DNA from: Alkalispirochaeta sp.
GTDB lineage: Bacteria > Spirochaetota > Spirochaetia > DSM-27196 > Alkalispirochaetaceae
Assembly: GCA_965601925.1 (NCBI GenBank)
Contig: OZ271854.1
Span: forward strand, 1,024,001-1,088,000
DNA: 64,000 bases
Reading direction: 5' to 3'
Of the stretch, positions 1 to 16,906 are shown piece by piece. Numbering within the stretch: the stretch's first letter is position 1; every line of letters starts with the position of its first letter. The notes below the pieces were generated by a model. The model was not told the origin of the DNA, ran no database searches, and worked only from the letters and a program-made list of their open reading frames with translations. A program made the translations under genes and the position numbers.

Positions 1-1355
1 ATCTCCTCATACGTCTTTCCCTGTTGTTCCACCCACGTGTAGTACTTGAGATTGTGAACGCGTTTGCGATCCTCGTAGCGTAACTCCAAAAGCGCGTCGG
101 TACCGATCCCGTGCAACATCTCGAAGTCCGCCACGGCGTTGTCCCGGGAGTACGCCCCGCGCTCGGCGGTCAGCTCCTGCAACCGAGAGGTGTACAACGC
201 CTCGGAGTCGGTAAAGACGGTCATCACCACGTCTTCCTCGGTGAGTTCGTAGTACTTTGCAAATTTAATGGCGGTAAGTACGTTACAGATACAGCTGATG
301 CCGAGCGTGTCCAAGGCGTCGACGACCGTCGCGTCGACGCCCCGCTCCTTAAGGTACGCCCGGCCCGCAGGCTCGTTGAAGAGCCGCAACAGTCGCATCG
401 TGTGCTCGTCGTCGACGGCTACCACCATATCGGTGTTCTTCACGTTGTGAATCCACGGCACGTGCTTATCACCGATTCCTTCGATTCGATGGCCGCCGAA
501 ACCGTTTGAGAGGAGCGTAGGACACTGGAGCGCTTCGCTCACCGCGAGCTTTGCATCGGGGTAGATCGTCTTGAGATACTCCCCCGAAGCGGTAGTACCG
601 GCGGAACCGGAGGAAACGCACGTTCCGGCGAAGCGGTCACGCGGCCCCATCACGCGTCGCAGGACCTTCTCCATGGCGTGTCCCGTTACCTCGTGGTGCC
701 ACAGGTGGTTCCCCAACTGGTCGAACTGGTTGAAGATGAAGATGCCCTCCCCGCGCTCGGCGTCCAGTTCGTGGCACTTGTCGAAGATCTCCTTCACGTT
801 ACTCTCACACCCCGGAGTGGCGATCGTCTCGTCGGCCATCTTCTCGAGCCACGCGAAGCGCTCCCGAGACATCTCCTCCGGCAGGATCGCGATCGATTTG
901 CACCCCAACAGGCGTGAGATGTAGGCGCCGCCGCGGCAGTAATTGCCGGTCGAGGGCCATACCGCCATGTTCCGCTCCGGGTCGAACTGGCCGGTCACCA
1001 GCGTCGGGGCCAAGCAGCTGTAGGCCGCGCCGACCTTGTGAGCGCCGGTGGGGAACCATTTTCCCACCAACGCGACGATGCGGGCCTGCACACCGGTAAG
1101 CTCTCGCGGCATCTCGAAATAGTTGACCCCGGCGTACGTACCACCGGACTCCACCGGCTCATTCTCCCACGAGACGCGAAAAAGGTTGCGAGAGTGCACG
1201 TCGTTGAGGCCGATCCCCTTGAGCTCATCCCGTATCGCTGCGGGAATCTCCTCCGGGTGGGCCATCTGCCGGTAGGTCGGGAGCACGATGCCCTGCTTGG
1301 CGCAGAGTTTTGCATTCTTCTCTATCTGGGCGTCATGTTTGGTAAGGTCGATCAT
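1..1355 (-). CDS. PLP-dependent fold-type II (PALP, cysteine-synthase-like) enzyme, large type; 3' end runs off the window
   Basis: Absent from the ORF track (no stop in window). Manual translation from ATG 1355: MIDLTKHDAQIEKNAK...GKWFPTGAHKVGAA (PLP Lys)...WPSTGNYCRGG...SSGSAGT...HRIEGIGDKHVPW. ATGA overlap with the upstream gene's stop. Confidence 0.85.
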   Translation of the reverse strand, partial: MIDLTKHDAQIEKNAKLCAKQGIVLPTYRQMAHPEEIPAAIRDELKGIGLNDVHSRNLFRVSWENEPVESGGTYAGVNYFEMPRELTGVQARIVALVGKWFPTGAHKVGAAYSCLAPTLVTGQFDPERNMAVWPSTGNYCRGGAYISRLLGCKSIAILPEEMSRERFAWLEKMADETIATPGCESNVKEIFDKCHELDAERGEGIFIFNQFDQLGNHLWHHEVTGHAMEKVLRRVMGPRDRFAGTCVSSGSAGTTASGEYLKTIYPDAKLAVSEALQCPTLLSNGFGGHRIEGIGDKHVPWIHNVKNTDMVVAVDDEHTMRLLRLFNEPAGRAYLKERGVDATVVDALDTLGISCICNVLTAIKFAKYYELTEEDVVMTVFTDSEALYTSRLQELTAERGAYSRDNAVADFEMLHGIGTDALLELRYEDRKRVHNLKYYTWVEQQGKTYEE

Positions 1356-2554
1356 GAATCATCTCCGTTCCCTTGCGAAGTCGAGATAGGGTCTGCTCCG
1401 CCCACGGGGAGAGAGACTCCCTTCTTGGCGGAATCGATATCCTTGAGGCCGCTGCCGGTGACGAGGAGCACTACGGTTGAATCCTGCGGCACCTCATCGC
1501 TGAGTTTCAACAGACCGGCGTAGGATGAGGCGGCGGCGGGTTCGCCGAAGAGACCGCACCGCGATGCGAGCTCACGCTGGGCCGTCAAAATCTCGCGGTC
1601 CGAGACGACCACGGTCCGCCCCCGGTGGCGTTGCAGCCGCCCCAAAGCGAACAGTCCGCCCCGCGGGACATCCACCGAGATCGAGTCCGCAATCGTTTTG
1701 GAAGGGACCGGCGGGCCGAATGAGCCTGTGGCCAGGGCGCGAGCGATGGCGGAGGAACCTTCGGCTTGAACGGCGACCACCGTCGGCATCGCGTCGGCCA
1801 GTCCAAAGGTCACCAAGTCTTCGAACCCCTTATAGACGCCGCTGATAATCACGCCGTCGCCGGTAGGGACGAAGACGTAGTCCGGCATGCGGTCTCCCAG
1901 TTGCTTGAAAATCTCCAGCGAGACGGTCTTTTTCCCCTCGATGGTAAGGGGATTGTAGGCGGTATTGCGCGAGAGCCCGCCGTGCCGCTCCGTGTACTCC
2001 AACGATGCGTCATAGGCGACGTCGTAGGTCCCGTCCACCCGGATGAGATCGGCGCCGTACTGCTCGGCCTGAACCATCTTTGCCGGTGGGGCCGAGGCCG
2101 GCAAGTAGAGGCGTACGGCGATGCCGGCTGCGGCGCCGATGCCGGCCATGGAGCTCCCGGCATTTCCCGTGGAGGCGACGACGATGCGGTCGATCCCCTC
2201 GCGCCGGGCGTACGCCGAGACGAGATAGCTTGCCCGATCCTTGAGCGAGCCGGTGGGATTACCCGTCTCGTCCTTGAGGAAGAGCCCGGGACGGCCCAAA
2301 GCCTCTCGCAGCCGCGCGGGTTCCCAAAGCGGCGTATTCCCCACCGGGACCGGGGGAAACCATGTGCGCTCGACCGGCAACAGATCGAAGGCCTCCCATT
2401 CTTTTTCCGGCACGCCGTCCGGCACGACTTCCAAGACGCCCATGAGGGGCCGGTCGGGGGTTTGTAATGCAGAACAGTCGTCGCAAAGCATTCGATCCGG
2501 GGTAATTGGATACTCCCGACCGCACCGGCTGCAGCGATACGAAAAGCGGATCAT
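1352..2554 (-). CDS. Threonine synthase-like PLP enzyme (fold-type II) with N-terminal CxxC..CxxC ribbon
   Basis: GNTPL, DETGNPTGSLKDRAS (PLP Lys), ASTGNAG, VPTGDG, EPAAA, LLVTGSGLKD. Start placed at ATG 2554, which overlaps the ygeY stop (ATGA). Confidence 0.85.
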   Translation of the reverse strand: MIRFSYRCSRCGREYPITPDRMLCDDCSALQTPDRPLMGVLEVVPDGVPEKEWEAFDLLPVERTWFPPVPVGNTPLWEPARLREALGRPGLFLKDETGNPTGSLKDRASYLVSAYARREGIDRIVVASTGNAGSSMAGIGAAAGIAVRLYLPASAPPAKMVQAEQYGADLIRVDGTYDVAYDASLEYTERHGGLSRNTAYNPLTIEGKKTVSLEIFKQLGDRMPDYVFVPTGDGVIISGVYKGFEDLVTFGLADAMPTVVAVQAEGSSAIARALATGSFGPPVPSKTIADSISVDVPRGGLFALGRLQRHRGRTVVVSDREILTAQRELASRCGLFGEPAAASSYAGLLKLSDEVPQDSTVVLLVTGSGLKDIDSAKKGVSLPVGGADPISTSQGNGDDS

Positions 2555-3777
2555 TGCTCCGGGGTATCCTCCAGTGCGTAGGGGAGCATCGCGTAGAAGG
2601 CGCTGCACTTCTCCAGATCGTCTACCCGAGTAATCTCGTTGGGTGCGTGGGCCTGGTCCTCGTCTCCCGGTCCGAATCCTATAGCGGGAATCTTGTGCCG
2701 CCCCGTTGTGGCGACGAGATTTGTGGAAAAGGTCCACTTATCGACCGTGGGTGGTGCGGACCATAGCGCTTCGTACGCACGTTTACCGGCTTGCACGATC
2801 CGGTGATCCTCGGGGATCTTCCACGTCGGGAAGTAGAGCTCTTGGGAGTAATCCGCCTCTTTCCACCCCCGTCGCGTGTAGTCCGGCATCGTTACCTCCA
2901 CCGCCGACTCGCTCTCGCCGATCGCCTCGGCAACGCACTCCTTTACCTGGCGAATCGCGAGGTCGGCATCCTCCCCCCAGGTGAGGCGGCGGTCCAAATA
3001 GAGCATCGCCTGGTCCGGGACGGCGCACTGCGACGGCCCCTTCACATCGATTTGGCTCACGACGATCGTGCCTTTCCCGAGAAAGTTGTCCTCGTCGGGC
3101 GCAAGTTCCGCGTTCAGTTTCTCCAACGCCAGGGCGGCTCGGGCGGCCTTGTACGCCGCGCTCTCTCCTCGCTCCGGTGCCGACCCGTGGGCCGAGACGC
3201 CGGTAAGACGCAGGACCATCTCCATGCGGCCCCGGTGTCCGCGGTAGAGGCGGCACGAGGTCGGCTCCGTCGAAACGACGAAATCGGGCTTGAGCCCCTC
3301 CTCCTCGATGAGGTACTTCCAACACATCCCGTCGCAATCCTCTTCCATAACGGTAAAGGTGAAGTACACCGAATACTCACCCGCATAGTCGAGGTCTTTG
3401 AGTATCCGCCCGGCGGTGATCATCGCCGCCGCACCGCCTTTTTGGTCGGAGGTGCCGCGACCGTGGACCAACCCGTCGGCGATCTCGCCCGAAAAGGGGT
3501 CCTTCTTCCATTGCGCCGGGTCGCCTACCTCTACGGTGTCGACGTGGCCGTCGAAGGCGAGCTTCTTCGGTCCCGATCCGATACGGGCGACGACGCTTCC
3601 CAAGCCGTCGATACGTACCTCGTCGAAGCCGTAGGACTCGCACATCTCCTTGATCCGCAGGCAGACGTCTTTTTCGGCGGCGCTGTAGGACTTGATACGT
3701 ACCAACTCGCTCAGTACACCGGCGGTCTCATCGCGATACTGCTGCGCCTTTTGTACAATGTCTTGTGCTTTACTCAT
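2551..3777 (-). CDS. ygeY: YgeY family M20 metallo-hydrolase
   Basis: FDGHVDTV, GRGTSDQKGG, VMEEDCDG, STEPT, GHRGRME, AHAPNE; sits next to ssnA and ygfK. Confidence 0.9.
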   Translation of the reverse strand: MSKAQDIVQKAQQYRDETAGVLSELVRIKSYSAAEKDVCLRIKEMCESYGFDEVRIDGLGSVVARIGSGPKKLAFDGHVDTVEVGDPAQWKKDPFSGEIADGLVHGRGTSDQKGGAAAMITAGRILKDLDYAGEYSVYFTFTVMEEDCDGMCWKYLIEEEGLKPDFVVSTEPTSCRLYRGHRGRMEMVLRLTGVSAHGSAPERGESAAYKAARAALALEKLNAELAPDEDNFLGKGTIVVSQIDVKGPSQCAVPDQAMLYLDRRLTWGEDADLAIRQVKECVAEAIGESESAVEVTMPDYTRRGWKEADYSQELYFPTWKIPEDHRIVQAGKRAYEALWSAPPTVDKWTFSTNLVATTGRHKIPAIGFGPGDEDQAHAPNEITRVDDLEKCSAFYAMLPYALEDTPEQ

Positions 3778-3825: not shown

Positions 3826-5151
3826 CTACGCCTCGATAGTCTTCATCCGTTCCCACAAGCGCACCGCTTGACCACGCGCCTCGCGGTAGATTGCCTCTGT
3901 ATCCGCGGAGAGTCGCCGGTCGCGCATTACGATACGCCCCTCGATCATCACCGTCTCCACGATCTCCGCCCCCATGCCGAAGACCATGTGCCCCGCGATG
4001 TTCTCCGCAACCAAGGGCGTCGGACTCGCGTAGGTCGCGACGACCAAATCCGCCGCATACTCAGGCTCCAAGCGCCCGAAAGAACGGCCGAATATGCGTC
4101 GCAGAATCTCGTTTCCCGACGCCAGGGCCTGCAAAAAATCTCCCGGTCCCAAGGAGCCGCCGGCGTCGCGATGTTTAAAATAGGCGCTCTTCAACTCGGT
4201 AAACATGTCGCCACCGATACCGTCGGTGCCGAGAGCGAAGTGTTTGAACTCCGGCAGACGGTGGTTGTACCCCACGTTGTTGTTCATGTTGGATCGACAG
4301 CTGTGCAGAAGAAAACCGTCGTGTCCGTTGAGAAGCTCGACTTCGGCGGCGCCCAGATGGGTGCCGTGGGCGACGAGACACTTCCCGTCTATGAGGTCGA
4401 AGTCCGCCAGGCGCGGAATCAAATCCTTACCGTAGGTGATATGCGAGTAGGAGGCGTCGTAAAGATCCTCCGCCACGTGTACATGGAATCCTCGCCCCGT
4501 CTCTTCGCACGCGTCGGCGACCATCTTCAGTCCGTTATCCGGCAGGGTCGCCGGTGCATGTCCACCGATGAGTGCCTCGGTGAGGCCCGACCAGGAGCCG
4601 GCGGTGCGCTCCTCGTCGATGCGCTTCGCAAAAGCGATGTTCTCCGCTACTCCCGCGCGCATCCCCGCCTCTCCGTGACGGTCGGTCACCTCGTAGCAGG
4701 TGACGCCCCGGAGACCCGCCTCCTCAAAGGCTCGTTGTATCGTCGCGAGGGATCCGGTAATGAAGTTAGGCGACGCGTTGTGGTCGACTACCGCCGTGGT
4801 ACCGCAGCGAATCGCGTCCAATGAGCAAACGAGGGCGGCGGAGTAGAGACTCTCCTCGTCCAGCGCGCGATCCATGCGCCACCATAGATTTTTTAGGATC
4901 GAAACGAAGTCCGGCGTGGGGCCGATCTCCACGAGCATCCCCCGGGCGAGGCCGGAGTAGTAGTGGTGGTGACTGCAGACGAGGCCGGGAAAAATCACCT
5001 TGCCGCCGGCGTCGACTACGGTCGCTCCGCCTTCGACCGAAATGTTCGCTCCGACCTCTTTGATCGCCGCCCCATCCACCAGAAGATCGTAACCCTCCCG
5101 TACTCGCGGCGGATCGAAGTCGACAAGGGTAGCGTTCTTAAAGAGAATCAT
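3826..5151 (-). CDS. ssnA: Putative aminohydrolase SsnA (amidohydrolase superfamily)
   Basis: SHHHYYSGLARG, LWWRMDRALD, HVHVAED, RSNMNNNVG, LGTDGIG; coupled to ygfK. Confidence 0.9.
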   Translation of the reverse strand: MILFKNATLVDFDPPRVREGYDLLVDGAAIKEVGANISVEGGATVVDAGGKVIFPGLVCSHHHYYSGLARGMLVEIGPTPDFVSILKNLWWRMDRALDEESLYSAALVCSLDAIRCGTTAVVDHNASPNFITGSLATIQRAFEEAGLRGVTCYEVTDRHGEAGMRAGVAENIAFAKRIDEERTAGSWSGLTEALIGGHAPATLPDNGLKMVADACEETGRGFHVHVAEDLYDASYSHITYGKDLIPRLADFDLIDGKCLVAHGTHLGAAEVELLNGHDGFLLHSCRSNMNNNVGYNHRLPEFKHFALGTDGIGGDMFTELKSAYFKHRDAGGSLGPGDFLQALASGNEILRRIFGRSFGRLEPEYAADLVVATYASPTPLVAENIAGHMVFGMGAEIVETVMIEGRIVMRDRRLSADTEAIYREARGQAVRLWERMKTIEA

Positions 5152-8100
5152 CGCGGCACTCCCGATATCGTCGGCTCCACGGGCCCGAACAGGTGAGGGC
5201 GACGCATACGCACCAACTCGAAGAGGCGAAAGAAGCGCGCCTCGTCGTCTTCACCCCGAGCCGCGGCGGCGACCTCGGCGGTGGTGAGGGTGCGCTCCGT
5301 TCCGGCGAAGCGCACCGTGACCGTGTCGCCCTTCAAGAGCCATCCCTGGTTGGTGCTCTGTGCGAAGTCCTCGGCAGTGCTGAACACCGTCGGCTTGTCG
5401 CGATACGGCAGCCCCTCCCACGGACAAAAGTGCCCGCAGTTGCCGCATTCGTTGCAGTACGCGTCGATGTGGACGATCTCGTACGGATTGTCGAAGAGCT
5501 CTTCATCGGCCACCGGCAGGGCGATATTGGCGCGATTGGGGCAGACGTCGACGCACTTATTGCAGACGAAGTCGCACTCCAGGCAGCGCGACCGCTCCAC
5601 GGCCCCGAAGCGGGCGGGCTCGTAATCGGAACGTGCGTCCGGCTTGGCAACGATCCGGCGCCGCTTGTCGGCGATGTGCGCCGCGCGCTCCTCGGCGTCG
5701 AGACGGGGCACGACTTCCGATCGCACCCAATCCGGCTCCACTCTGCGACAGATGGCGTCGGCGGCGCGGCGTCCCTCGGCGATGCAGTTGACGATGGTTG
5801 AGGCGCCGGTACGGCTGTCGCCGATGAGGAAGACGTTCTCAATCTCCGTCTCGCCGCCCTCCGACGTTGGGACGCCCCCCCGCTCGTCTGGGTGGAGGCC
5901 GAGATCTCGGAGCGAGACGACGTCCGGATCGTCGCCGATGGCGTAGACCACGCTGTCGGCACGAATCTCTTCGGTCGCGTCGGTGGGCACGGGACGACGG
6001 CGCCCCGAGGCGTCCGCCTCGCCCAAGGTCATGACGCGTACGGTAAGTGTTCCATCGTCGTTCAGCCGCTCAGGGCTGCGAAGCCAGCGAAACGCGACGT
6101 CGTCCTCCCGGGCAAACTCATACTCCTCACGGCTCGCCGGCATCTGTTCGAAAGCGCGACGGTAGACGATTGAGGCGCCCTCGACGCCGGGGCATCGTAG
6201 GGCCGCGCGGGCGCAATCCATCGCGGTGTCGCCGGCGCCGATCACGACGACCTCTTTACCCATCTCAAGCGTCGTCGCGTCGCGGTTGTACTGCAAAAGG
6301 AACGGGAGCGACGGATGGATGCGCGAGGAGTCCCCGCCGATCGGCAGATTCCTGGTTTGGTAGGTCCCCAGGCCCAGAACGACAAACTCGAAGCCCTTCT
6401 CTTTGAGTTCGTTCACGCTGATGCCGTGGGTGACGCCGAAGTGGAACTCGACGCCCATATCGCGGATAACTCCGACATCGCTATCGATCGCCTCACGGGC
6501 GATGCGAAAGTGCGGGACAACGTTGCGTACGACGCCTCCGGCGTCACGCTCCCGCTCAAAGACCGAGACGGCAAATCCCTCGCGGGCGAGAAAGTACGCC
6601 GCCGAGAGTCCCGCCGGACCGGCACCGACGACCGCCACCTTCTCGGACCGCACCGGGCCGGGGTGTCGTTGCGGACGATACGCGTCGATCCCTTTCAAGA
6701 CCGCCAGTCGCTTGACCTCACGGATGTTGAGGCAGCCTTCGTAGTCGAGGCGTGTGCAGACCAACTGACATTTATGGTCGCAGATATGGCCCGTGATCGA
6801 AGGGAGGGCGTTGCGTTCGTAGATGCACTCCAACGCCTCGTCGTAGCGCTCTTCCCCGACCAGGCGGATGTACTCCGGTATGTGCTGCCGAATCGCGCAG
6901 GCGGTGACGCACGGCGCCTCGTAGCAGTCGAACAGCGGTAGCGCTCCCGGAACGGCGACCTCGTCGGTGCCGCGAAACTCCTTGTGGAGGCTTCTCTCGG
7001 TATAGGAGCTCCGGGCGAGCGCGGCCAGCGCCGCAACGTCGATTCGACTCATCTCCCGGTCGTCGACGGCGTCCAACGCCTCGGCGATCTGCACTTGCCG
7101 GAGGTAGCCGCCGGGCTTCAACAGATCGGTGGCGAGCGTGACGGGGCGGATGCCGGTCTTGAAGACCGCTTGCGCGTTGTGAACGGTAATCCCTCCGGAG
7201 AAGGAGATCGGCAGCTCCCCGTCGAACGCCTCGGCGAGCCGGGAGGCGACGGTAATGGAGAGGGGAAAGAGTGCGCGCCCCGAAAGGTACATCTCGCCGC
7301 CGGGGAGCTCCGTGCGATTGTTCTTGGTCGCGAGGGTGTTGGTCAGCTTCACACCGAAACACCTACCGTGATCCGCCGCGACGGCTCGTAATCGTGCGAG
7401 GATCTCCAGAGCCTGTGGATACTGCAGGTCGTGCGCGAATCCCTCGGCGTCCAACGCGACGTAGCCGAAGCCGAGACCGGAAAGAATCGACGTCACGGTA
7501 TCGTAACCCAGAAGCGTAGGGTTAAGCTTTACATACGTGTCCAGCCCCTGATCGACGAGCATATGGGACGAGATCGCCTCGATCTCGTCCGGCGGACACC
7601 CGTGCATCGTCGAAAGAGTGACGGAGCGGCACATTCGCCCGGTCACGGTAAAAGCCTCGAATACCTTCGCTTTCTCCTCTAAACCGGTGCCGGCCAGGAG
7701 CGCCGGCATAACGGTGCGCACCTCACCGATCCACCGCGCAAAGAGCGCCTCTGCGGAAGAGTCCTTCATGCGGTTGATGTAGCGCTGCATCGCTTCGGTG
7801 CGTATCCCGGCCATGTCGTAGCCGACACTCATATTGAAGATGAAAGAACGCTCCAAGCCGGAAGCCTTCATATCGAAGAGCTCCTCGACGACGTGGAGCA
7901 GAATCCACGCCTTGGCGTACTCCCGCCACGCCTCCTCCAAGGAAAGCTCCGTGGACCACTCGGTGTTGTATCCCTCGTCGTAGGCGTCGATACACGGCTT
8001 CTCAATCTCAAGAGCGTCGAGGATCTGGACCGTTTTTAGTTCGATGAAGCGGCTACCGGTGAGATACGAGCACACGATATTGGACGCCAACTGCGTGTGT

Positions 8101-8282
8101 GGGCCGGCGGCCGGGCCTAAGGGTATCTCGCACGATTCGTTTAGAATGCGAACGGTGCGCGCGTCGGTTCGGCGGTACCAGGAGTCCTGAGGAATATCGA
8201 ATATCGACCGCTGTTCGCGATACTCCTCAAGCATGCGCCTCAGGAGTTCGCCTAACGGTACGAGCCTCATGTTGTCACCCAT
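5148..8282 (-). CDS. ygfK: YgfK-family Fe-S flavo-oxidoreductase ('putative selenate reductase subunit')
   Basis: GPAAGPHTQL, KPCID..DEGYNTEWSTEL, TLSTMHGCPPDEIE, GAGPAG and GAGDTAMD Rossmann motifs, C-terminal CxxCxxxCxxCVDVCPNRAN and CNECGNC clusters. Start ATG 8282 follows AAGGAG. Confidence 0.93.
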   Translation of the reverse strand: MGDNMRLVPLGELLRRMLEEYREQRSIFDIPQDSWYRRTDARTVRILNESCEIPLGPAAGPHTQLASNIVCSYLTGSRFIELKTVQILDALEIEKPCIDAYDEGYNTEWSTELSLEEAWREYAKAWILLHVVEELFDMKASGLERSFIFNMSVGYDMAGIRTEAMQRYINRMKDSSAEALFARWIGEVRTVMPALLAGTGLEEKAKVFEAFTVTGRMCRSVTLSTMHGCPPDEIEAISSHMLVDQGLDTYVKLNPTLLGYDTVTSILSGLGFGYVALDAEGFAHDLQYPQALEILARLRAVAADHGRCFGVKLTNTLATKNNRTELPGGEMYLSGRALFPLSITVASRLAEAFDGELPISFSGGITVHNAQAVFKTGIRPVTLATDLLKPGGYLRQVQIAEALDAVDDREMSRIDVAALAALARSSYTERSLHKEFRGTDEVAVPGALPLFDCYEAPCVTACAIRQHIPEYIRLVGEERYDEALECIYERNALPSITGHICDHKCQLVCTRLDYEGCLNIREVKRLAVLKGIDAYRPQRHPGPVRSEKVAVVGAGPAGLSAAYFLAREGFAVSVFERERDAGGVVRNVVPHFRIAREAIDSDVGVIRDMGVEFHFGVTHGISVNELKEKGFEFVVLGLGTYQTRNLPIGGDSSRIHPSLPFLLQYNRDATTLEMGKEVVVIGAGDTAMDCARAALRCPGVEGASIVYRRAFEQMPASREEYEFAREDDVAFRWLRSPERLNDDGTLTVRVMTLGEADASGRRRPVPTDATEEIRADSVVYAIGDDPDVVSLRDLGLHPDERGGVPTSEGGETEIENVFLIGDSRTGASTIVNCIAEGRRAADAICRRVEPDWVRSEVVPRLDAEERAAHIADKRRRIVAKPDARSDYEPARFGAVERSRCLECDFVCNKCVDVCPNRANIALPVADEELFDNPYEIVHIDAYCNECGNCGHFCPWEGLPYRDKPTVFSTAEDFAQSTNQGWLLKGDTVTVRFAGTERTLTTAEVAAAARGEDDEARFFRLFELVRMRRPHLFGPVEPTISGVPR

Positions 8283-8504: not shown

Positions 8505-9797
8505 CTAACCGATGAAGAAGTGCAGCACGAACACCGCGGCCACCACATAGGTCGCGACCCCCACTTCCTTGGCCCTACCGCTCAAGACCTTCAGAATCAC
8601 GTAGGATGTCAGGCCCCACACAATGCCTTCGGCTATGCTGTAGGCCAAGGGCATCATCACCATGGCCAAAAAGGCCGGTACGGACTCGGTAATCTCCGAA
8701 AAGTCGATCTCCCGGACAGGGCTCATCATGAAAACGCCCACCAGAATCAACGCCGGAGCGGTCGCGGCGCCGGGAACGAGGAGAAAGAGGGGACTCAAAA
8801 AGAGAGCGAGAAGAAACATGCCCGCGGTAGTGAGGGATGTCAGGCCGGTGCGGCCGCCCTCCTCGACACCGGCGGCGCTCTCGACGTAGGTGGTAACCGT
8901 CGATGTGCCGAGCATGGCGCCGACGGTGGTTCCTACCGCATCGGCAAAGAGCGCCTGTTTTGCCCGAGGAATCGAACCGTCCTCACGCAGGATACCGGCC
9001 TTTGTGGAGACACCGATCAAAGTTCCTACGGTGTCGAACATGTCGACAAAGAGAAAGGTGAACAGGACGATCACCATGTCGATGGTGAATATTCGGCTGA
9101 ACTCGAACTGCAGAAAGATAGGTGCCAAAGAGGGCGGCGCCGCCACGAGTCGGAATCCGGTAAGGTTGGTGACTCCCATAGGAATACCGATGATCGTAGA
9201 CCCGAGGATTCCCCACAGAAGCGCGCCGCGAACCTTGAAGGCGATCATGACGCCGGTGATGATCAGGCCGATGACGGCCAGAAGGGCGTTCGGATTTCCC
9301 AACGAGCCGAGCCCCACCAGAGTCGCATCGTTATTCACGATGATTCCGGCGTTCTGCATGCCGATAAAGGCGATAAAGAGCCCGATACCGACGGAAATCG
9401 CGCGCTTGATATTCATCGGAATCAGATTGATGATCGCTTCACGAATATTGAAGAAGGTCAAAATGAGAAAGATGATACCTTCGAGAAACACTGCGGTGAG
9501 CGCAAACTGCCAGCTATAGCCCATGCCGAGGACGACGGCGAAGGCGAAGAACGCATTGAGTCCCATACCGGGAGCCAACGCAAAGGGAAGCTTGGCAACC
9601 AAGGCCATCACCACCGTGGCAATGAGGGAGGCCAGAGCCGTGGCCGTAAAGACCGAGTCCGCCGGCATCCCCGCAGCCGAGAGAATGCTCGGGTTGACCG
9701 CGAGAATGTAGGCCATAGTCAAAAAGGTGGTGATTCCGGCGATAACCTCGGTTCGAACCGACGTGTTATGCTCTTTGAGTTGAAAAAAACGTTCCAT
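8505..9797 (-). CDS. NCS2 family, AzgA/PbuG-type adenine/guanine/hypoxanthine permease
   Basis: TEVIAGITTFLTMAYILAVNP, LAPGMGLNAFF, DMFDTVGTL, TTYVESAAGV..GGRTGLT. Alternative in-frame GTG start at 9854 with AAGGAGG upstream. Confidence 0.9.
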   Translation of the reverse strand: MERFFQLKEHNTSVRTEVIAGITTFLTMAYILAVNPSILSAAGMPADSVFTATALASLIATVVMALVAKLPFALAPGMGLNAFFAFAVVLGMGYSWQFALTAVFLEGIIFLILTFFNIREAIINLIPMNIKRAISVGIGLFIAFIGMQNAGIIVNNDATLVGLGSLGNPNALLAVIGLIITGVMIAFKVRGALLWGILGSTIIGIPMGVTNLTGFRLVAAPPSLAPIFLQFEFSRIFTIDMVIVLFTFLFVDMFDTVGTLIGVSTKAGILREDGSIPRAKQALFADAVGTTVGAMLGTSTVTTYVESAAGVEEGGRTGLTSLTTAGMFLLALFLSPLFLLVPGAATAPALILVGVFMMSPVREIDFSEITESVPAFLAMVMMPLAYSIAEGIVWGLTSYVILKVLSGRAKEVGVATYVVAAVFVLHFFIG

Positions 9798-10006: not shown

Positions 10007-11740
10007 GTGGAACGGAAACATCTGATCGACGTTGCGATGGGACGCAGTGATGCGGATCTCGTGCTGCGAAATGCGCGTGTTGTTAATGTGCGCACTCATG
10101 AAGTGGTAACGGGAGACCTCGCAGTGGCGGGCGGCGCCGTGGTGGGCATCGGCTCCTACGACGGGCGGGACGAAAAGGACGTGGGCGGCCGGTACGTAAT
10201 TCCCGGTTTCATCGACAGCCACGTCCATATCGAGTCGGCACTGGTCTCTCCCGAGCAGTTCGCTCGCCTCGTGGTGCCCCGGGGGACTACTACGGTGATA
10301 GCCGACCCCCACGAAATCGCCAACGTCGCGGGGATTGAGGGTATCCGCTACATGATCACCGCCGCCAAGGACATTCCCCTCGACGTTCTGTACATGTTGC
10401 CCTCCTGCGTTCCTGCGACCTCTTTTGAGAACGCCGGTGCAATCTTGGATGCCGAAGCGCTGGCGACATTGATCGACGAGGAGTCGGTGCTGGGGTTGGG
10501 AGAGGTGATGGACTATCCGGCGGTCGTCGCCGGCGACGCCGGAGTTCTGGCGAAGATCGCACTGGCCGCCGAACGAGACAAACCGGTCGACGGCCACAGC
10601 CCCATGCTCCGGGGACGCGGTCTCACGGCGTATCGCGCCGCGGGCATCGGCACCGACCATGAGTGCTCTACGGTAGAGGAGATGTCCGAGCGTCTCAGGG
10701 TGGGCATGCGGGTGCTCATTCGCGAGGGGTCGGCGGCGCGCAACCTCGAGGCCCTTGTCGAAGGAGTGAATCGCGACACCGCAAGGCGCTGCTCCTTTTG
10801 CACCGACGATAAGCAAGCCGAGGATATCCTGCGGGAGGGCCATATTGACCACATCGTACGCCGCGCGGTAGAGCACGGTCTCGATCCGCTCACGGCGATT
10901 CAGATGGCGACGATTAACGCCGCGGAGTGCTTCTCCCTCGACCGGAAAGGGAGTCTCGACCCCGGTTTCGCCGCAGACCTTGTCGTGGTAGACGATCTTG
11001 AACGCTTCCACGTTCGCGAGGTGTATAAGGGCGGGCAACTCGTTGCGGAGGACCATCGCGCCGCCTTTGCCGTACCCGGTGCCGACATCTCGTCGGTGAG
11101 CGGGAGCGTGCACGTCGCGGAGCTGGACGCCGAGAGTTTCCGCCTCCCACTGGCGGGCACATCCGTCAACGTAATTCGCCTCAACCCGGGAAGCCTCATC
11201 ACCGAAAAGGAGATCCGCACCGTGGCGGTCGACGACGAGGGTTATTACGCCGCCGATGAGACGTCCGCCGTCTCGAAGCTCGCGGTCGTTGAGCGGCACC
11301 GCGCGACGGGAAACATCGGTTTGGGGCTGGTCGAGGGGTACGGCGTCGCGGGAGGCGCCGTCGCAACGACGATCGCACACGACTCCCACAACCTGATCAT
11401 CATCGGCGACAACGATCGCGACATGTTCGAGGCGGCCGCCGAGCTCATACGGTGCAGCGGCGGTATGACCCTTGCCAAGGGGGGCCGTATTCTCGACACC
11501 CTCCCCCTCCCGATCGCCGGGCTGATGTCCGATGAGCCGGGGGAGAAGATAAGCGAACGGCTGGCCCACCTCAACCGGCTGGCACACGCTGAGCTTCGCG
11601 TGAACTCCGCGATAGACCCCTTTATGAGCCTCTCGTTTCTGGCGCTCCCGGTGATTCCCGCCATCAAGCTGACGGATATGGGACTCTTCGACGTAAGCCG
11701 TTTCGAATTTATGAACATCGAGGCGGTCGCCGACGCCTAA
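10007..11740 (+). CDS. ade: Adenine deaminase
   Basis: PGFIDSHVHIES, ADPHEIANV, GEVMDYP, DGHSP, TDHEC, REGSAARNL, FCTDD, AHDSHN, MSLSFLALPVIP. Confidence 0.93.
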   Translation: MERKHLIDVAMGRSDADLVLRNARVVNVRTHEVVTGDLAVAGGAVVGIGSYDGRDEKDVGGRYVIPGFIDSHVHIESALVSPEQFARLVVPRGTTTVIADPHEIANVAGIEGIRYMITAAKDIPLDVLYMLPSCVPATSFENAGAILDAEALATLIDEESVLGLGEVMDYPAVVAGDAGVLAKIALAAERDKPVDGHSPMLRGRGLTAYRAAGIGTDHECSTVEEMSERLRVGMRVLIREGSAARNLEALVEGVNRDTARRCSFCTDDKQAEDILREGHIDHIVRRAVEHGLDPLTAIQMATINAAECFSLDRKGSLDPGFAADLVVVDDLERFHVREVYKGGQLVAEDHRAAFAVPGADISSVSGSVHVAELDAESFRLPLAGTSVNVIRLNPGSLITEKEIRTVAVDDEGYYAADETSAVSKLAVVERHRATGNIGLGLVEGYGVAGGAVATTIAHDSHNLIIIGDNDRDMFEAAAELIRCSGGMTLAKGGRILDTLPLPIAGLMSDEPGEKISERLAHLNRLAHAELRVNSAIDPFMSLSFLALPVIPAIKLTDMGLFDVSRFEFMNIEAVADA

Positions 11741-11803: not shown

Positions 11804-13219
11804 TTAGTTCACATCCTCATATCCCGACGAGGGCGTCCCGGAGACCTTTTCCTGACGCAACGACCGCGGCAGTACCAGATTGAGAAAGAGCGCCGTGAGC
11901 CCGCCGGTGGTGATTGCGGATCCGAAGATCTGCCGGAGAAGGGGCGGGAAGTTCTTGAGCACGTCGGGGACAAAGACGACGCCGAGACCGAGGCCGAAAC
12001 TGATCGCCATAATCAGAACACCACGCCGATCGATAGTACTGGAGGCGATAATTCTCACTCCCGCGGCGGCGACCGTTCCGAACATAATGATAGTGGCACC
12101 CCCCAACACCGGGGGAGGAATAATCGAGAAGAGCCCGCCGACGACGGGAAAGAGTCCTACCACGACCAAGAGACCGGATATCCAGTAGCCGACATACCGA
12201 CTCGCAATACCGGTCATCTGGATAACTCCGTTATTCTGGCTGAAGGTTGTGTTGGGAAAGCTGTTGAACACCGCTGCGATCGCCGAGTTGACGCCGTCGC
12301 CCAAGACACCGCCGGAGATGCGTTTCATGTAGACATCACCCTCGATCGGCTCGCCCGAGACCATCGACGTTGCAGTCAGGTCTCCGATCGATTCAACTGT
12401 GGTAATGAGATAGAGGAGCAAAAACGGGACGAGGCTCGCCCAGCTGAAACGGAAAAAACCGTAGCGGAAGGGAATCGGAGCTTGAATGACGTTGAGGTCC
12501 CGAAGAGCACCGAAGTTGACGCGGCCTAGTATCGCGGCGACGACGTATCCCACCAGTAAGCCGATGAAGATCGCGCCCATTCGAACGAACTTGTTCCGAC
12601 TGCGATTCAATACCACGATCGTGACGAGGACGATCGCGGCGAGCCCCAAGTTCTGCCACGTCGCAAAGGCGTCCGGCACGTTCGCCTGGACGTAGGCTCC
12701 GCCGGCGATATCGGTGATACCGACTCGAATCAGGGATAGACCGATCATCGTCACGACGATACCGCTGACCAAGGGAGTGATAATCTTGCGCAACAACGGA
12801 ATGAAGCGGCTGAAGATCATCTCGATAAATGAACCCAAAAAACAGACGCCGAACACCGTCGCCAGCGCCGCCTCCACGGTACCGCCTCCCGCCTTGACCG
12901 CGAGTCCGGTCGCAATGACGGATCCGAGAAAGGTGAAGCTGGTGCCTTGAATGCTGAGGAGACCGGATCCTATAGGGCCGATCTTTCGCACCTGAATGAA
13001 TGTACAGATTCCGCTGGCAAAGAGCGCCATACTGATGATGAAACTACTTTGCTGCACGTCCAACCCCAATGCACCGCTTATGATAATCGGCGGGGTAACG
13101 ATGCCGACAAAGATGGCCATGAGGTGCTGCAATGCGGCAAAGAAGGATTGGAGAGTCGTCGGTTTGTCATTGAGACCGTAAATCAGATCCGTTGCGGACA
13201 CACGATTGGAATCGGACAT
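11804..13219 (-). CDS. NCS2/NAT family xanthine (or uric acid) permease, XanP/XanQ-like
   Basis: ALQHLMAIF in TM1 and NAT signature TFSQNNGVIQMTG; start ATG 13219 follows AAAGGAG. Confidence 0.88.
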   Translation of the reverse strand: MSDSNRVSATDLIYGLNDKPTTLQSFFAALQHLMAIFVGIVTPPIIISGALGLDVQQSSFIISMALFASGICTFIQVRKIGPIGSGLLSIQGTSFTFLGSVIATGLAVKAGGGTVEAALATVFGVCFLGSFIEMIFSRFIPLLRKIITPLVSGIVVTMIGLSLIRVGITDIAGGAYVQANVPDAFATWQNLGLAAIVLVTIVVLNRSRNKFVRMGAIFIGLLVGYVVAAILGRVNFGALRDLNVIQAPIPFRYGFFRFSWASLVPFLLLYLITTVESIGDLTATSMVSGEPIEGDVYMKRISGGVLGDGVNSAIAAVFNSFPNTTFSQNNGVIQMTGIASRYVGYWISGLLVVVGLFPVVGGLFSIIPPPVLGGATIIMFGTVAAAGVRIIASSTIDRRGVLIMAISFGLGLGVVFVPDVLKNFPPLLRQIFGSAITTGGLTALFLNLVLPRSLRQEKVSGTPSSGYEDVN

Positions 13220-13364
13220 AGAGGCTGCTCCTTTTCTGTAAACGAGATGAAACAACTATTCTCACACCGCGCGTACTCCCGCGGTGAGAAGCGCCTATAT
13301 CTACCGGTACTCAGACGGTCGGCGCCACCATCGGTCGGCGCCGCCTATACTCCTGCGAGCGGCA

Positions 13365-14222
13365 TCATCCGCCGAGGGGCGTTAAAACATCATCGATAAA
13401 TGCGCCGACTAAGTTCAGCGCAACTTCCGTTCTGTAGTAAGCGGTGGATCGCTGATCGTCGATCGGAGAGACGAGCTCGCGATAGCCTTCGATAAGCTCG
13501 TCGCGGCGCCTGACGACCTCCTCGATCGATAAGCCCTTCATCGTCTCCTCGACTCTTTGAGACCGAACGACCGTGGGCGCAACGGCACCGAAAGCTATGG
13601 CGACATCGGCGATCACGCCGGCCTCGACTGCGGCGCAGGCGGCGACGGACAGCTTGGAAAGGGCGTTCGCACGGCGCGTCCCCACCTTTTTATAGAACCA
13701 AGCGTCGCCGGACCGGCCGGGTATCACAACGGTTGTGAGGAGTTCGTCGTCTCCGAGAGCGGTGCGCCCCGGTCCGGTGACGAACTCCTCGATTGGGAGT
13801 CGTCGCGTCCCGGCGGATGAGGAAAGCTCGACGTGAGCGTCCAAGGCGTACAACGGACACACCGCGTCCGCCGCGGGAGAGGCGTTGCAAATGTTGCCGG
13901 CAAGGGTACCGACGTTTCTGAGGCCCGGGGCGGCGATCTCGACGATGGCGGCGCGGAGCAGTTCCGGTGTCGCCGGATGCCGAAGCAGGTCGGTATAGGT
14001 TACCGCACCGCCGATGCGCAGCTCTCGATAGCGGCTCTCGATCCCCGTTAACTCTTCCAGATGGGCTATGTATACGATGGGTCCGTCAAACTCCGGCACC
14101 ATCCCGGCCGGCTTGCGGTACCGAACTAACAGGTCCGTGGCTCCGGCCATGGGGACCGCTCTCTCCCGGGCCCTGACGGCAAGCGCGTCGGCCAGGCTTG
14201 CGGGGCGATACCACGAACTCAT
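13365..14222 (-). CDS. Xanthine dehydrogenase-family FAD-binding subunit (XdhB/CoxM-like)
   Basis: MAGATDL, LRNVGTLAGNICNASPAAD, PIDDQRSTAYYR. Confidence 0.9.
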   Translation of the reverse strand: MSSWYRPASLADALAVRARERAVPMAGATDLLVRYRKPAGMVPEFDGPIVYIAHLEELTGIESRYRELRIGGAVTYTDLLRHPATPELLRAAIVEIAAPGLRNVGTLAGNICNASPAADAVCPLYALDAHVELSSSAGTRRLPIEEFVTGPGRTALGDDELLTTVVIPGRSGDAWFYKKVGTRRANALSKLSVAACAAVEAGVIADVAIAFGAVAPTVVRSQRVEETMKGLSIEEVVRRRDELIEGYRELVSPIDDQRSTAYYRTEVALNLVGAFIDDVLTPLGG

Positions 14223-14722
14223 GATGCCGCCTCGACGTCCCGCCCTTCCGCATCGGATACGAGCTCTTTGGAGGCGTTACTCACCGCCTGCACGATGGCG
14301 TCGTATCCCGTGCAACGGCACAGGTTGCCGGAGATTCCCTCTCGTATTTCGTGATCCGTGGGGCGGGGATTTTCTCGAAGGAGCGCGTCGGCGGCGACGA
14401 TCATACCCGGTATGCAAAACCCGCACTGCACCGAGCCGTCCGCGGCAAAACGTTCGACAAGACGCTTACCCCGCTCGGTATCGCGAACACCTTCTATCGT
14501 CTCGATCCGACTCCCTTCGACCGCCCCGACTGCGAGGATACACGAATCCACGAGGCGTTCGTCCAGAATAATGGAGCAGGCACCGCACTCGCCCTCGCCG
14601 CACCCCTCTTTTACCCCGAGTAATCCTAAATCGTCGCGGAGGACGTCAAGGAGCCGCTTGAGCGGGTTGACCGTGACCGATGCTTCTCGCCCATTTACCA
14701 GAAACCGTATCTCTTTTTCCAT
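14219..14722 (-). CDS. Xanthine dehydrogenase-family 2x[2Fe-2S] subunit (XdhC/CoxS-like)
   Basis: [34 protein letters not shown] 14722 follows GGAG. Confidence 0.92.
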   Translation of the reverse strand: MEKEIRFLVNGREASVTVNPLKRLLDVLRDDLGLLGVKEGCGEGECGACSIILDERLVDSCILAVGAVEGSRIETIEGVRDTERGKRLVERFAADGSVQCGFCIPGMIVAADALLRENPRPTDHEIREGISGNLCRCTGYDAIVQAVSNASKELVSDAEGRDVEAAS

Positions 14723-16850
14723 GTACAAGCTCCATTACGTATTCCGGCGTCACGGGAATGCGATGCACCGGGAGATCGAGCGCCTTTTGTATTGCCGCGG
14801 CGTAGGCCGGAGCCAGACCGTCAAACACTACCTCGCCGGCGCCCTTTGCACCGAAGGGACCGTACTCGTAGGGATTGTCGAACAGTTTGGAGGCTATCGG
14901 CGGGAAATCCAACGAGGTCGGTATCATATAGTCCGCCATGGTCGCCTGCCGGTACCGCCCGTCGACGAGCTCCAGCTTTTCGAGACTCGCATACCCGAGC
15001 CCTTGGCTCGCGCCCCCTTCGATCTGGCCGCGTACCACTTTGTCATCGATCGCGCGTCCCACGTCGTAAGCGGTCCACACTCCCCGGACCGTCACCTCGT
15101 AGGTATACCGATCTACCTCGACCTCCACGGCATTAACTCCCCAGGAATAGGAAGGGTATGCATCGCCCTGATAGGTCTCCGCATCCCACTCCAAACCGCT
15201 CGGATGGCGGTAGCCCTGGTGTACCTCGAACTCTCCCGGCTCGTCCAACCTACCTTTGAGCTTCTTCGCCGCCTCCTGCAGGAGATATCCGACGATTCCC
15301 ACCGATCGAGAAGCACAGGTGGGACCGGAGTCCGGTACTTTTGAGGTGTCCGATTCGTGATAGAGCACCTCGGAAACGGGTATCTCCAATACCTCCGCCA
15401 CGATCTTTCGCAGCGTGGTGAGGGCGCCCTGCCCGATCTCCACGATAGAGGCCTTGATTTCGGGACGGCCGTCGGCGCGCTTCTTGATGGTGACCCGAGA
15501 TTTGATGATGTCCCGCTCGCCGCTTCCGGTAAAGGCGCTCCCGTGCTTAAAGAGGGAGATACCGATACCGCGCCAGTTCCCTCGGCCGAACTCGCGGTCC
15601 TTGCGACGGTAATCGCTCTCGGTCATCACATGCTCCAACATTTCCGGAAGCTTCACCACCTCTCTGATGCGCCCGTTGGTGACGGTAACCGATCCCTCCT
15701 GCAGAAGCATACGACGTCGGAACTCGACCTCGTCGACGCCGAGATCTCGCGCGATGTGCGTCATGAGAGTCTCCGCGGCGAAGAGCGCTTGGGGCGCGCC
15801 GAAGCCGCGGAATGCGTCGTTCGGGACGGTGTTGGTGCACAACGCGCGCCCGCGAATGCGAACGTTCGGGATGTCGTATACGCCGGCTGCCGAAAACATC
15901 GCCCGCTGCAGAACCACCCCGGAGCCGCTCTGGTAGGCGCCGGCGTTGATCATGAGATCCGCGTCCAAGGCGACGACGCGATCGTTCCCGTCCACGGCGA
16001 CGCGGTAACGCGTCCTTGAGGGGTGTCGTTTCGTGGAGTATAGGAGATCTTCCCCACGCTCCATGATGAAACGCACCGGTGAGCGTACGACGAGCGACGC
16101 CACGGTCATCGCCGCCGCGAGGACATCGGGAAAGTGCTCCTTGCCGCCGAATCCGCCGCCGGTGACGCACTGCTTCACGGTGACCTCGTCCGGCGAGCAT
16201 CCCAAGGCACCGGCCACGCCCTTTCTCACGTAGAAGGGACATTGCGTGGATATATAAATGGTCGGCCGCCCGTTCTCGACGGTCGCAACGACCCCTTGGG
16301 GTTCCATGTAGACGTGCTCTTGGTACCCGGTCTGAAACTCGCTCTCAAAGACGCGCTCGGCGCGGGCAAACGCAGCGTCGGGATCGCCCTTGACGATCGT
16401 GTGATCCGAAAAGAGATTGTCGTCGCCGTGAATCGGTCCTCCGACACACGCCAGCGCGTCGAGATCGGTGAAAGCCGGCGTCTCCTCCTCTATGTCGAGG
16501 GAAAAAGAGTCCAGGAGCTCTTCGAGGTGGGTGGCATCGGGTCCCACGAGGAGCCCCACCGGCTCGCCGAGATATCGTACCGTGTCCTCGGCGAAGACCC
16601 GCCAGTCCGACGTTATCATGGGGACGACGTTCTTGCCGCCTTCCGGAATGTCGTCGGCCGTAACGAAAGTATACCCGCGGGGAAGGTCCGGGACGGTAAT
16701 CCGACGGATCGTTCCGCGAGGAACGGGAGATCGAAGGAAACGGGCGGACAGCGCACCGTCGAACCGATGGTCGGCAATGTACGCGGCCTCTCCCCGAGAT
16801 TTTGAACGGGCGTCTACCCGTTCTACCGAGCGGCTTATCGTGGAGCTCAT
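14646..16850 (-). CDS. Xanthine dehydrogenase-family molybdopterin-binding large subunit
   Basis: [57 protein letters not shown]; start ATG 16850 follows GGAGG. Confidence 0.9.
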   Translation of the reverse strand: MSSTISRSVERVDARSKSRGEAAYIADHRFDGALSARFLRSPVPRGTIRRITVPDLPRGYTFVTADDIPEGGKNVVPMITSDWRVFAEDTVRYLGEPVGLLVGPDATHLEELLDSFSLDIEEETPAFTDLDALACVGGPIHGDDNLFSDHTIVKGDPDAAFARAERVFESEFQTGYQEHVYMEPQGVVATVENGRPTIYISTQCPFYVRKGVAGALGCSPDEVTVKQCVTGGGFGGKEHFPDVLAAAMTVASLVVRSPVRFIMERGEDLLYSTKRHPSRTRYRVAVDGNDRVVALDADLMINAGAYQSGSGVVLQRAMFSAAGVYDIPNVRIRGRALCTNTVPNDAFRGFGAPQALFAAETLMTHIARDLGVDEVEFRRRMLLQEGSVTVTNGRIREVVKLPEMLEHVMTESDYRRKDREFGRGNWRGIGISLFKHGSAFTGSGERDIIKSRVTIKKRADGRPEIKASIVEIGQGALTTLRKIVAEVLEIPVSEVLYHESDTSKVPDSGPTCASRSVGIVGYLLQEAAKKLKGRLDEPGEFEVHQGYRHPSGLEWDAETYQGDAYPSYSWGVNAVEVEVDRYTYEVTVRGVWTAYDVGRAIDDKVVRGQIEGGASQGLGYASLEKLELVDGRYRQATMADYMIPTSLDFPPIASKLFDNPYEYGPFGAKGAGEVVFDGLAPAYAAAIQKALDLPVHRIPVTPEYVMELVHGKRDTVSGKWARSIGHGQPAQAAP

Positions 16851-16906
16851 AGGCGCCTCCTGTGCATATGCACCTATACTGACACTACTCCCGGTGATGT
16901 GCGCTG

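Follow-up and report, generated by a model that had tools for sequence, protein, structure and literature searches.

In a 64,000-nucleotide stretch of Alkalispirochaeta sp. (the window: GenBank assembly GCA_965601925.1, contig OZ271854.1, positions 1,024,001 to 1,088,000), two genes for pyridoxal phosphate (PLP) enzymes, named PALP-A and PALP-B (A and B in counts), are located between ygeY and ygeW of a cluster for purine reduction. The reading favoured here, with modest confidence, is that A and B replace YgeX and remove 2,3-diaminopropionate (DAP): A likely as an ammonia-lyase, B possibly on the other enantiomer (predicted activities).

YgfK, SsnA and HyuA lead to 2,3-diureidopropionate, YgeW and YgeY remove the ureido groups to give DAP, and YgeX converts DAP to pyruvate (10.1101/2025.04.24.650524; PMC12507026; PMC12990295). 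YgeX has equal activity on both DAP isomers (PMC12507026); the pathway intermediates are proposed as (R) (PMC12990295; 10.1101/2025.04.24.650524). One proposed intermediate is albizziin (2-amino-3-ureidopropionate; PMC12507026), in place of which the 2-ureido isomer is proposed in 10.1101/2025.04.24.650524.

The genome searched is a 5.05-Mb single contig, 96.7% complete. Its ygfK, ssnA, ygeY and ygeW all exceed their NCBIfam cut-offs. YgeX was not found genome-wide: the best TIGR01747 score is 25 bits (cut-off 274, passed by the E. coli control genome), and E. coli YgeX gives no tblastn match at E ≤ 1e-5. The claim of an earlier note on this DNA, made from the letters alone, that neither PLP protein is YgeX is borne out by these searches and by the separate clades described below; the gene next to PALP-B outside the window, where a ygeX could have lain, is ygeW, 231 bases beyond the PALP-B end. 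Nine PALP genes are found in this genome. Seven pass cut-offs (DsdA, CysK, TrpB, cysteate synthase, ThrC, CysM, OrtB); PALP-A and PALP-B are the only two without a family. Among the families shown, neither passes an NCBIfam cut-off, and both are PALP by Pfam (PF00291).

PALP-A (model pLDDT 92.7) is nearest to short threonine synthases (ThrC; 33-36% identity, TM 0.71-0.75) and retains the ThrC fold and the PLP lysine (K105), with an N-terminal Cys-rich motif (C8/C11/C24/C27). Its scores are below every ThrC cut-off (TIGR00260, 149/167 bits; PRK08197, 206/303 bits). To judge by sequence, the label 'threonine synthase' is very probably wrong, as the earlier note had supposed, because the genome has another, over-cut-off ThrC, following an aspartokinase-like gene (named from its sequence appearance); 1352..2554 is not its only ThrC. 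ThrC enzymes can deaminate too (PMC12172450).

Residues were compared using a profile of 119 PALP-A members; ThrC numbering is that of T. thermophilus, counted on the alignment to PALP-A. At ThrC T88, R160 and N188, which we take to be the ligands of the substrate phosphate, all 119 members have A132, a non-Arg residue (T/L/M) at 204 and D233, respectively; three fetched short ThrCs all retain T88, R160 and N188. K208 stands at ThrC Q164, and the N154/S155 positions are partly kept. New near-invariant residues are K208, R196, Y177 and D290. The PALP-A loop is STGN (T in 118/119), vs TDGN in 18/18 aligned YgeX, and identity to E. coli YgeX is 23% over 130 residues.

PALP-A forms its own clade (SH-aLRT 100), the sampled members of which span three phyla. 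In the fetched loci, a PALP-A profile gives members at least 384 bits and other ThrC-like proteins at most 328 bits; a few second PALP-A-like copies in Anaerolineae score 360-380 bits. PALP-A is neither a cysteate synthase (24% identity over 140 residues) nor an OrtB (60/550 bits): the over-cut-off members of both families in this genome fall outside the PALP-A clade, on long branches. Comparison of the PALP-A and PALP-B profiles gives no significant match (E 0.27); the two are therefore not a recent duplication. The tree is a quick IQ-TREE run on a subsample: 20/119 A rows, 12/142 main-type B rows and the whole set of 50 other rows, without the A and B proteins of the window itself. Several sequences of the outgroup are partial or sit on long branches, and the use of the tree is limited to the monophyly of A, B and YgeX.

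PALP-B (model pLDDT 90.9) has its best NCBIfam scores with cysK (89.5 vs 351 bits) and cysKM (80 vs 344 bits), both below the cut-offs. Its best structural matches are CysK, CBS, CmnB and SbnA (Z 29-33); the structural comparison (VIA) gives Z 33.1 to Fn1220 and Z 22.2 to YgeX. The PLP lysine (K107), the STGN carboxylate loop, Q210-F211, the G-S-x-G-T phosphate loop and the pyridine-N S354 are all kept. Features of its own are an HKVG motif, an invariant GDK motif (295-297) and N- and C-terminal extensions. Identity to E. coli YgeX is 28% over 46 residues. The PALP-B clade (SH-aLRT 100) is sister to CysK/CysM and holds all three score classes (≥690, 440-485 and ~290-334 bits). The 120 database matches listed are named PLP enzyme or cysteine synthase, or are unnamed; the closest homologues are from spirochaete assemblies, the PALP-B of Sediminispirochaeta smaragdinae is WP_013252734.1, and the ESM Atlas holds only generically named PALP clusters.

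More distant PALP-B homologues (43-45% identity) are found in non-purine settings on Bosea and Rhizobium plasmids (L268:14070-15404, L269:13917-15416). ridA is near one and tauE near both, a setting compatible with an eliminating lyase; the surroundings also include genes for an M20 hydrolase and for transporters. This plasmid subfamily may act on another substrate. Two other roles considered for PALP-B were dropped. It is not a stand-in for HyuA, since hyuA is co-present in many B clusters (16/80 B loci); a link to selenium maturation (yqeB adjoins in some loci) is not supported, no match to yqeB or yqeC being found in this genome.

The pair goes with the purine pathway across phyla. Among the best 80 of at least 595 PALP-B loci, A is found within 10 kb in 48, at least one purine-cluster gene in 50 and YgeX in none; A and B are adjacent (<200 bp) in 20 of the 48 loci that hold both. 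Most genomes in the counts that follow are drafts, and related genomes are not independent. Of 401 Spirochaetota (the phylum of the window), 48 have ygeY: ygeX is present in 31 (23 of them in one family), A in 20, B in 19 and both in 17. These 48 divide into A and B without ygeX (12), ygeX alone (24), all three (5), ygeX with B (2), A only (3) and none (2). In the five with all three, ygeX is on a separate contig amid non-purine genes; in G012 and G179, the purine cluster includes ygeX, and a search of these genomes found B and no A. The HyuA search covered 32 of the 48; the other 16 are all of family f26.

Bacillota were represented by 80 strong-ygeY genomes, chosen from 113 ygeY matches in 401 genomes; 32/113 were excluded as weaker than E 1e-125, together with G598 (the weakest ygeY of 81 chosen). 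A and B are both present in 72 and ygeX in 18: A and B without ygeX in 59, all three in 13, ygeX alone in 5, A only in 2, B only in 1, none in 0. The five without A and B all carry ygeX, and A is present in 61/62 ygeX-negative genomes. In Anaerolineae, B is found in 83/101 genomes, A in 59/62 B-positive vs 4/18 B-negative ones and ygeX in 1/80 (the A and ygeX search covered 62 of the 83 B-positive genomes). Five genomes in which B lacks a strong purine-pathway neighbour still have ygeY (5/5), ssnA over the cut-off (4/5) and A (4/5). In all, ygeX or A/B is present in 126 of the 128 ygeY genomes (48 Spirochaetota, 80 Bacillota); of the two exceptions, one is a draft at 89% and one has a weak ygeY. 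The co-occurrence with ygeY that the earlier note asked about thus holds, and the link of the pair to the purine pathway spans three phyla. The mutual exclusion with ygeX holds in part: A and B without ygeX are common, and strict exclusion is ruled out by the genomes with all three.

A and B occur with the knotted YgeW, with an OTC-like carbamoyltransferase, or with two carbamoyltransferases in the absence of a strong ygeY (G007). They thus persist across clusters that appear to remove the ureido groups differently, and the likeliest substrate is therefore the shared product, DAP. The OTC-like enzyme (~330 aa, 33-37% identity to YgeW) replaces the knotted YgeW in many Bacillota and Anaerolineae A/B clusters (e.g. 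L253:11042-12094); the one scanned is below all cut-offs. In L285 (G007), L037 and L094, two different carbamoyltransferases and a carbamate kinase are beside A and B, which suggests phosphorolysis of both ureido groups.

Several gene neighbours recur around A and B. glyA (serine hydroxymethyltransferase) directly adjoins A/B at L243:16848-18086, L253:5563-6834 and L256:11406-12686 (the third by sequence likeness only). In several Anaerolineae loci, A and B are separated by a glycosyltransferase-like ORF (a name given by sequence appearance), and an ORF of 188 aa comes after B; about 18/80 B loci are concerned (e.g. L065:9028-9987, L052:11538-12104). A gene of the 8-oxoguanine-deaminase family follows B in related clusters (L015:6109-7470, over the PRK08203 cut-off; equivalents in L017, L018, L020 and L021) and is absent from the Alkalispirochaeta cluster.

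In the proposed mechanism, a variant of the reductive purine (2,8-dioxopurine) pathway would end with PALP-A and PALP-B, which would break down the DAP released by YgeW and YgeY. PALP-A would be a ThrC derivative in which the substrate-phosphate pocket was lost and an aspartate gained there; an aspartate at this place would suit a positively charged side chain, of which the DAP 3-amino group is an example. The aspartate would bind this 3-amino group, and ammonia would be eliminated to give aminoacrylate, then pyruvate and ammonia. PALP-B, with the CysK site for alpha-amino acids kept, would deal with whatever A leaves, in the simplest case the opposite enantiomer of DAP, either as a second lyase or as a racemase. 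Two more specific enzymes could cover DAP, since YgeX takes both isomers and the intermediates are proposed as (R). A precedent for a racemase-plus-lyase pair is known from cysteate breakdown, the racemase there being PLP-independent (PMC11193023). The role of PALP-B is the weakest step of the proposal.

Several observations weigh against this reading. ygeX, A and B are found together in 18/128 ygeY genomes (13 Bacillota, 5 Spirochaetota), and four Bacillota (G409, G675, G746, G769) hold all three in one cluster; a pure replacement would not need this, so these four argue against it. Outside family f26, the anticorrelation of A and ygeX in Spirochaetota is not significant (5/8 vs 15/17, Fisher p 0.28), and the other p-values overstate because the genomes are related. 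The fold of PALP-B is nearest to beta-replacement synthases (CysK, CBS, CmnB, SbnA), not to lyases. All 18 aligned YgeX, including those beside B, keep K77, D120 and D189 (K77 and D120 are named in PMC4000059); the idea that YgeX copies beside B had lost D120 is ruled out, and there is no sign that B compensates for a YgeX restricted to one isomer. The pathway of this genome also has gaps. Of the genes that the earlier note proposed to look for to the left of the window, ygeW is indeed next, ygeX and hyuA were not found, and carbamate kinase (TIGR00746, 370.5 vs 358.25 bits) is at C1:2360807, 1.3 Mb from the cluster. The best HyuA match in the genome (216.6/393 bits) is the AllB allantoinase of a uricase operon. 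The Xdh-family genes reach at most ~30% identity to E. coli XdhD; close relatives carry XdhD orthologues at 50-60% identity. Because HyuA and a close XdhD are missing and carbamate kinase is distant, flux from urate to DAP is not assured here, and the organism may have only part of the pathway. Possibly the cluster has eroded; possibly it makes use of AllB from elsewhere in the genome.

AllB is encoded in a second purine operon (G000:C1:2233646-2245110; L012, L257), together with uricase, a guanine-deaminase-like amidohydrolase and a fused gene of the Xdh family; the genome thus carries both oxidative and reductive urate genes. Purine clusters of related spirochaetes have an allantoinase-like hydantoinase near ygfK (L284:12671-14065, L285:2920-4275, L287:6308-7684, L142-L144), missing here and in G354. 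These hydantoinases are 43-62% identical among themselves and 26-33% to E. coli HyuA; they are candidates, by sequence and position, for a non-orthologous HyuA.

The two PLP enzymes could instead act on DAP by beta-replacement, with serine or cysteine as a product to be assimilated or to feed one-carbon metabolism; they would then be a second exit beside YgeX rather than its direct equivalent. ThrC chemistry adds water, PALP-B folds with beta-replacement synthases, ygeX coexists in the same cluster in four genomes, and glyA is beside A/B in 3/20 Bacillota loci inspected (G450, G475, G713). Such neighbours are rare, however: of the three loci, two share almost the same layout, and no glyA was recognised among the recurrent neighbours of the 80 B loci. 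A catabolic cluster fed by permeases also requires an exit for a high flux wherever it has no ygeX, and A is found in nearly all ygeX-negative Bacillota; this exit is considered unlikely. It is doubtful, too, that A alone replaces YgeX and that B works one step earlier, eliminating urea from albizziin to give pyruvate directly. SbnA and CmnB, which make C3-N bonds, are fold relatives of PALP-B, B is present without A alongside an in-cluster ygeX in G012 and G179, and albizziin has been proposed as an intermediate (PMC12507026). Against this, YgeY would be left redundant, yet ygeY is retained beside A and B; the 2-ureido isomer of 10.1101/2025.04.24.650524 has no free alpha-amine for PLP; and B with ygeX and without A was seen in only two draft genomes.

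A and B might also be subunits of a single obligate heteromeric lyase, as their tight co-occurrence would allow (72/80 Bacillota, 29/31 B-positive Spirochaetota, 59/62 B-positive Anaerolineae). Both proteins keep the PLP lysine and complete active-site loops, only 20/48 loci have them adjacent (<200 bp), in several genomes they are not within 10 kb of each other, and each is found without the other in some drafts, all of which makes a heteromer very improbable. Hardly credible is an ordinary second threonine synthase (A) and an ordinary cysteine synthase (B) that came into the cluster by chance: the nearest solved relatives are ThrC and CysK, and sources label B 'cysteine synthase', but ThrC, CysK and CysM are over cut-off elsewhere in the genome, A and B are below the cut-offs in separate clades, A is without the ThrC pocket residues, and the linkage to purine genes extends across phyla.

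The three chained genes are on the minus strand at the coordinates given in the table below, and both overlaps (ygeY/PALP-A and PALP-A/PALP-B) are ATGA, as the earlier note had read them; its description of the enzymes as coupled does not extend to relatives, the A/B overlap being found in 0/48 related loci holding both genes. The two overlaps are ordinary and within chance, because 191/1689 close co-directional long-ORF pairs of this genome (crude ORF calls) show the same in-frame ATGA overlap. In Alkalispirochaeta the A/B overlap accompanies a low-confidence C-terminal tail on PALP-A (residues 386-400 of the predicted model). The PALP-A start at 2554, rather than an upstream GTG at 2737, agrees with the N-termini of 40 homologues. 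A promoter and terminator scan gave nothing usable inside the operon.

Genes of the cluster and its surroundings (positions are those of the window unless another contig coordinate is given; scores are in bits, vs the family cut-off)
Feature	Position	Strand	Basis
ygeW	G000:C1:1022470-1023660, outside the window, after PALP-B		TIGR03316 751.6 vs 500
PALP-B, CysK/CBS-fold PLP enzyme, 487 aa	1..1355, running 108 bases beyond the left window edge	-	
PALP-A, ThrC-derived PLP enzyme, 400 aa	1352..2554	-	below all ThrC cut-offs; own clade; fold nearest ThrC
ygeY, M20 ureido-hydrolase, 408 aa	2551..3777	-	TIGR03526 485.8 vs 321.5; 50% identity to E. coli YgeY
ssnA, amidohydrolase	3826..5151	-	TIGR03314 549.4 vs 455.5
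ygfK, 2,8-dioxopurine reductase homologue	5148..8282	-	TIGR03315 1299 vs 835; 51% identity to E. coli YgfK
membrane permease, GhxQ-like purine transporter	8505..9797	-	33% identity to E. coli GhxQ
adenine deaminase	10007..11740	+	TIGR01178 621.7 vs 472.5
xanthine permease (PbuX/XanQ type)	11804..13222	-	TIGR03173 442 vs 414
xanthine-dehydrogenase-family genes	13365..19744	-	FAD 13365-14222, Fe-S 14219-14728, Mo 14646-16850, fused Fe-S/Mo 16907-19744

The FAD, Fe-S and Mo genes match Xdh families, each below the cut-off; the fused Fe-S/Mo gene is named from the ORF listing and from tblastn with E. coli XdhA/XdhC. To the left of the window, past ygeW (L002:558-4414), are a TetR-like gene on the opposite strand and an ABC transporter of nucleoside/B6 type; similar ABC genes recur near PALP-B in 20-24/80 loci.

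When the reductive urate pathway was resolved in 2025, its last step was assigned to YgeX; ygeX is missing in 62/80 ygeY Bacillota and 79/80 Anaerolineae tested. A and B each represent a large and conserved family that has not been studied (B: at least 8000 proteins at E ≤ 1e-30). Assignment of their function would correct annotation (B as cysteine synthase or generic PLP enzyme; A best on threonine synthase models), would alter the calling of urate-degrading bacteria from genomes, and would bear on the question of stereochemistry (PMC12990295). In the survey by Li et al., PF00291 served to identify YgeX near SsnA (PMC12507026); another survey of urate degraders required dpaL. Because A and B match PF00291 too, the Chloroflexota and Spirochaetota clusters of Li et al. 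may include A/B unnoticed; if the replacement of YgeX by A and B is true, it would have been concealed in surveys that count every PF00291 neighbour as a YgeX. The literature searched gave no account of A or B as part of purine clusters; most papers behind subscription and the PMC12507026 supplement were outside this search, and a mention there is possible. Passages of 10.1101/2022.07.24.501321, 10.1101/2022.12.12.520169, PMC4016543 and PMC2276186 name no such genes. Two proteins of Bilophila wadsworthia might correspond to B and A: E5Y7Z0, a PF00291 protein of 52 kDa that is unstudied, and E5Y294, a 'threonine synthase' without cysteate lyase activity (PMC11193023). The present analysis contributes counts per genome for three phyla, shows that exclusion fails in part and separates A from B. 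A wider claim is put forward tentatively, as possible rather than probable: that A and B, not YgeX, are the commonest ending of reductive purine breakdown in anaerobes of the environment and in many of those associated with hosts (Bacillota, Anaerolineae, free-living Spirochaetota), and that the two represent new fold-type II PLP chemistry, namely a ThrC-derived DAP lyase and a CysK-fold DAP racemase or DAP-to-serine/cysteine replacement enzyme.

The closest known system is the pathway of E. coli and Clostridium sporogenes (XdhD or XdhAC, YgfK, SsnA, HyuA, YgeW, YqeA, YgeY, YgeX). ygfK, ssnA, ygeY and ygeW are shared (50-64% identity to E. coli), with genes for purine permeases, adenine deaminase and the Xdh family next to them. 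The Alkalispirochaeta cluster differs in having no ygeX, hyuA, close XdhD/YgfM or yqeB/yqeC, in its carbamate kinase being elsewhere and in the two other PLP enzymes between ygeY and ygeW. YgeX/DpaL (TIGR01747; PDB 4d9g) is, like A and B, a fold-type II PLP enzyme with the same place in the cluster and, as proposed, the same substrate; unlike YgeX, A and B both have Thr at catalytic D120 (an equivalence read from the shared T/S-x-G-N motif) and form separate clades. With short ThrC (PDB 2zsj, 2d1f, 6cgq, 1uim), A shares the SxKDR lysine motif, the STGN loop and the pyridine-N Thr; it differs in having A, T/L/M, D, K and Y for T88, R160, N188, Q164 and F134, Asp290 for the Thr of the ATAI motif, the new invariant R196 and the N-terminal Cys-rich motif. 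CysK, CBS, SbnA and CmnB (PDB 8sru, 5xem, 8if7, 5d84) have the fold nearest to that of B, with the STGN loop and the pyridine-N serine; unlike them, B (16-26% identity) has HKVG for xKDR, GDK at 295-297 and terminal extensions beyond the CysK-matched core. The C. difficile variant (UacX for YgfK, UacY for YgeW; PMC12507026) is a precedent for non-orthologous swaps in this pathway; unlike the A/B case, these swaps affect other steps, and the C. difficile cluster keeps YgeX (PMC12507026).

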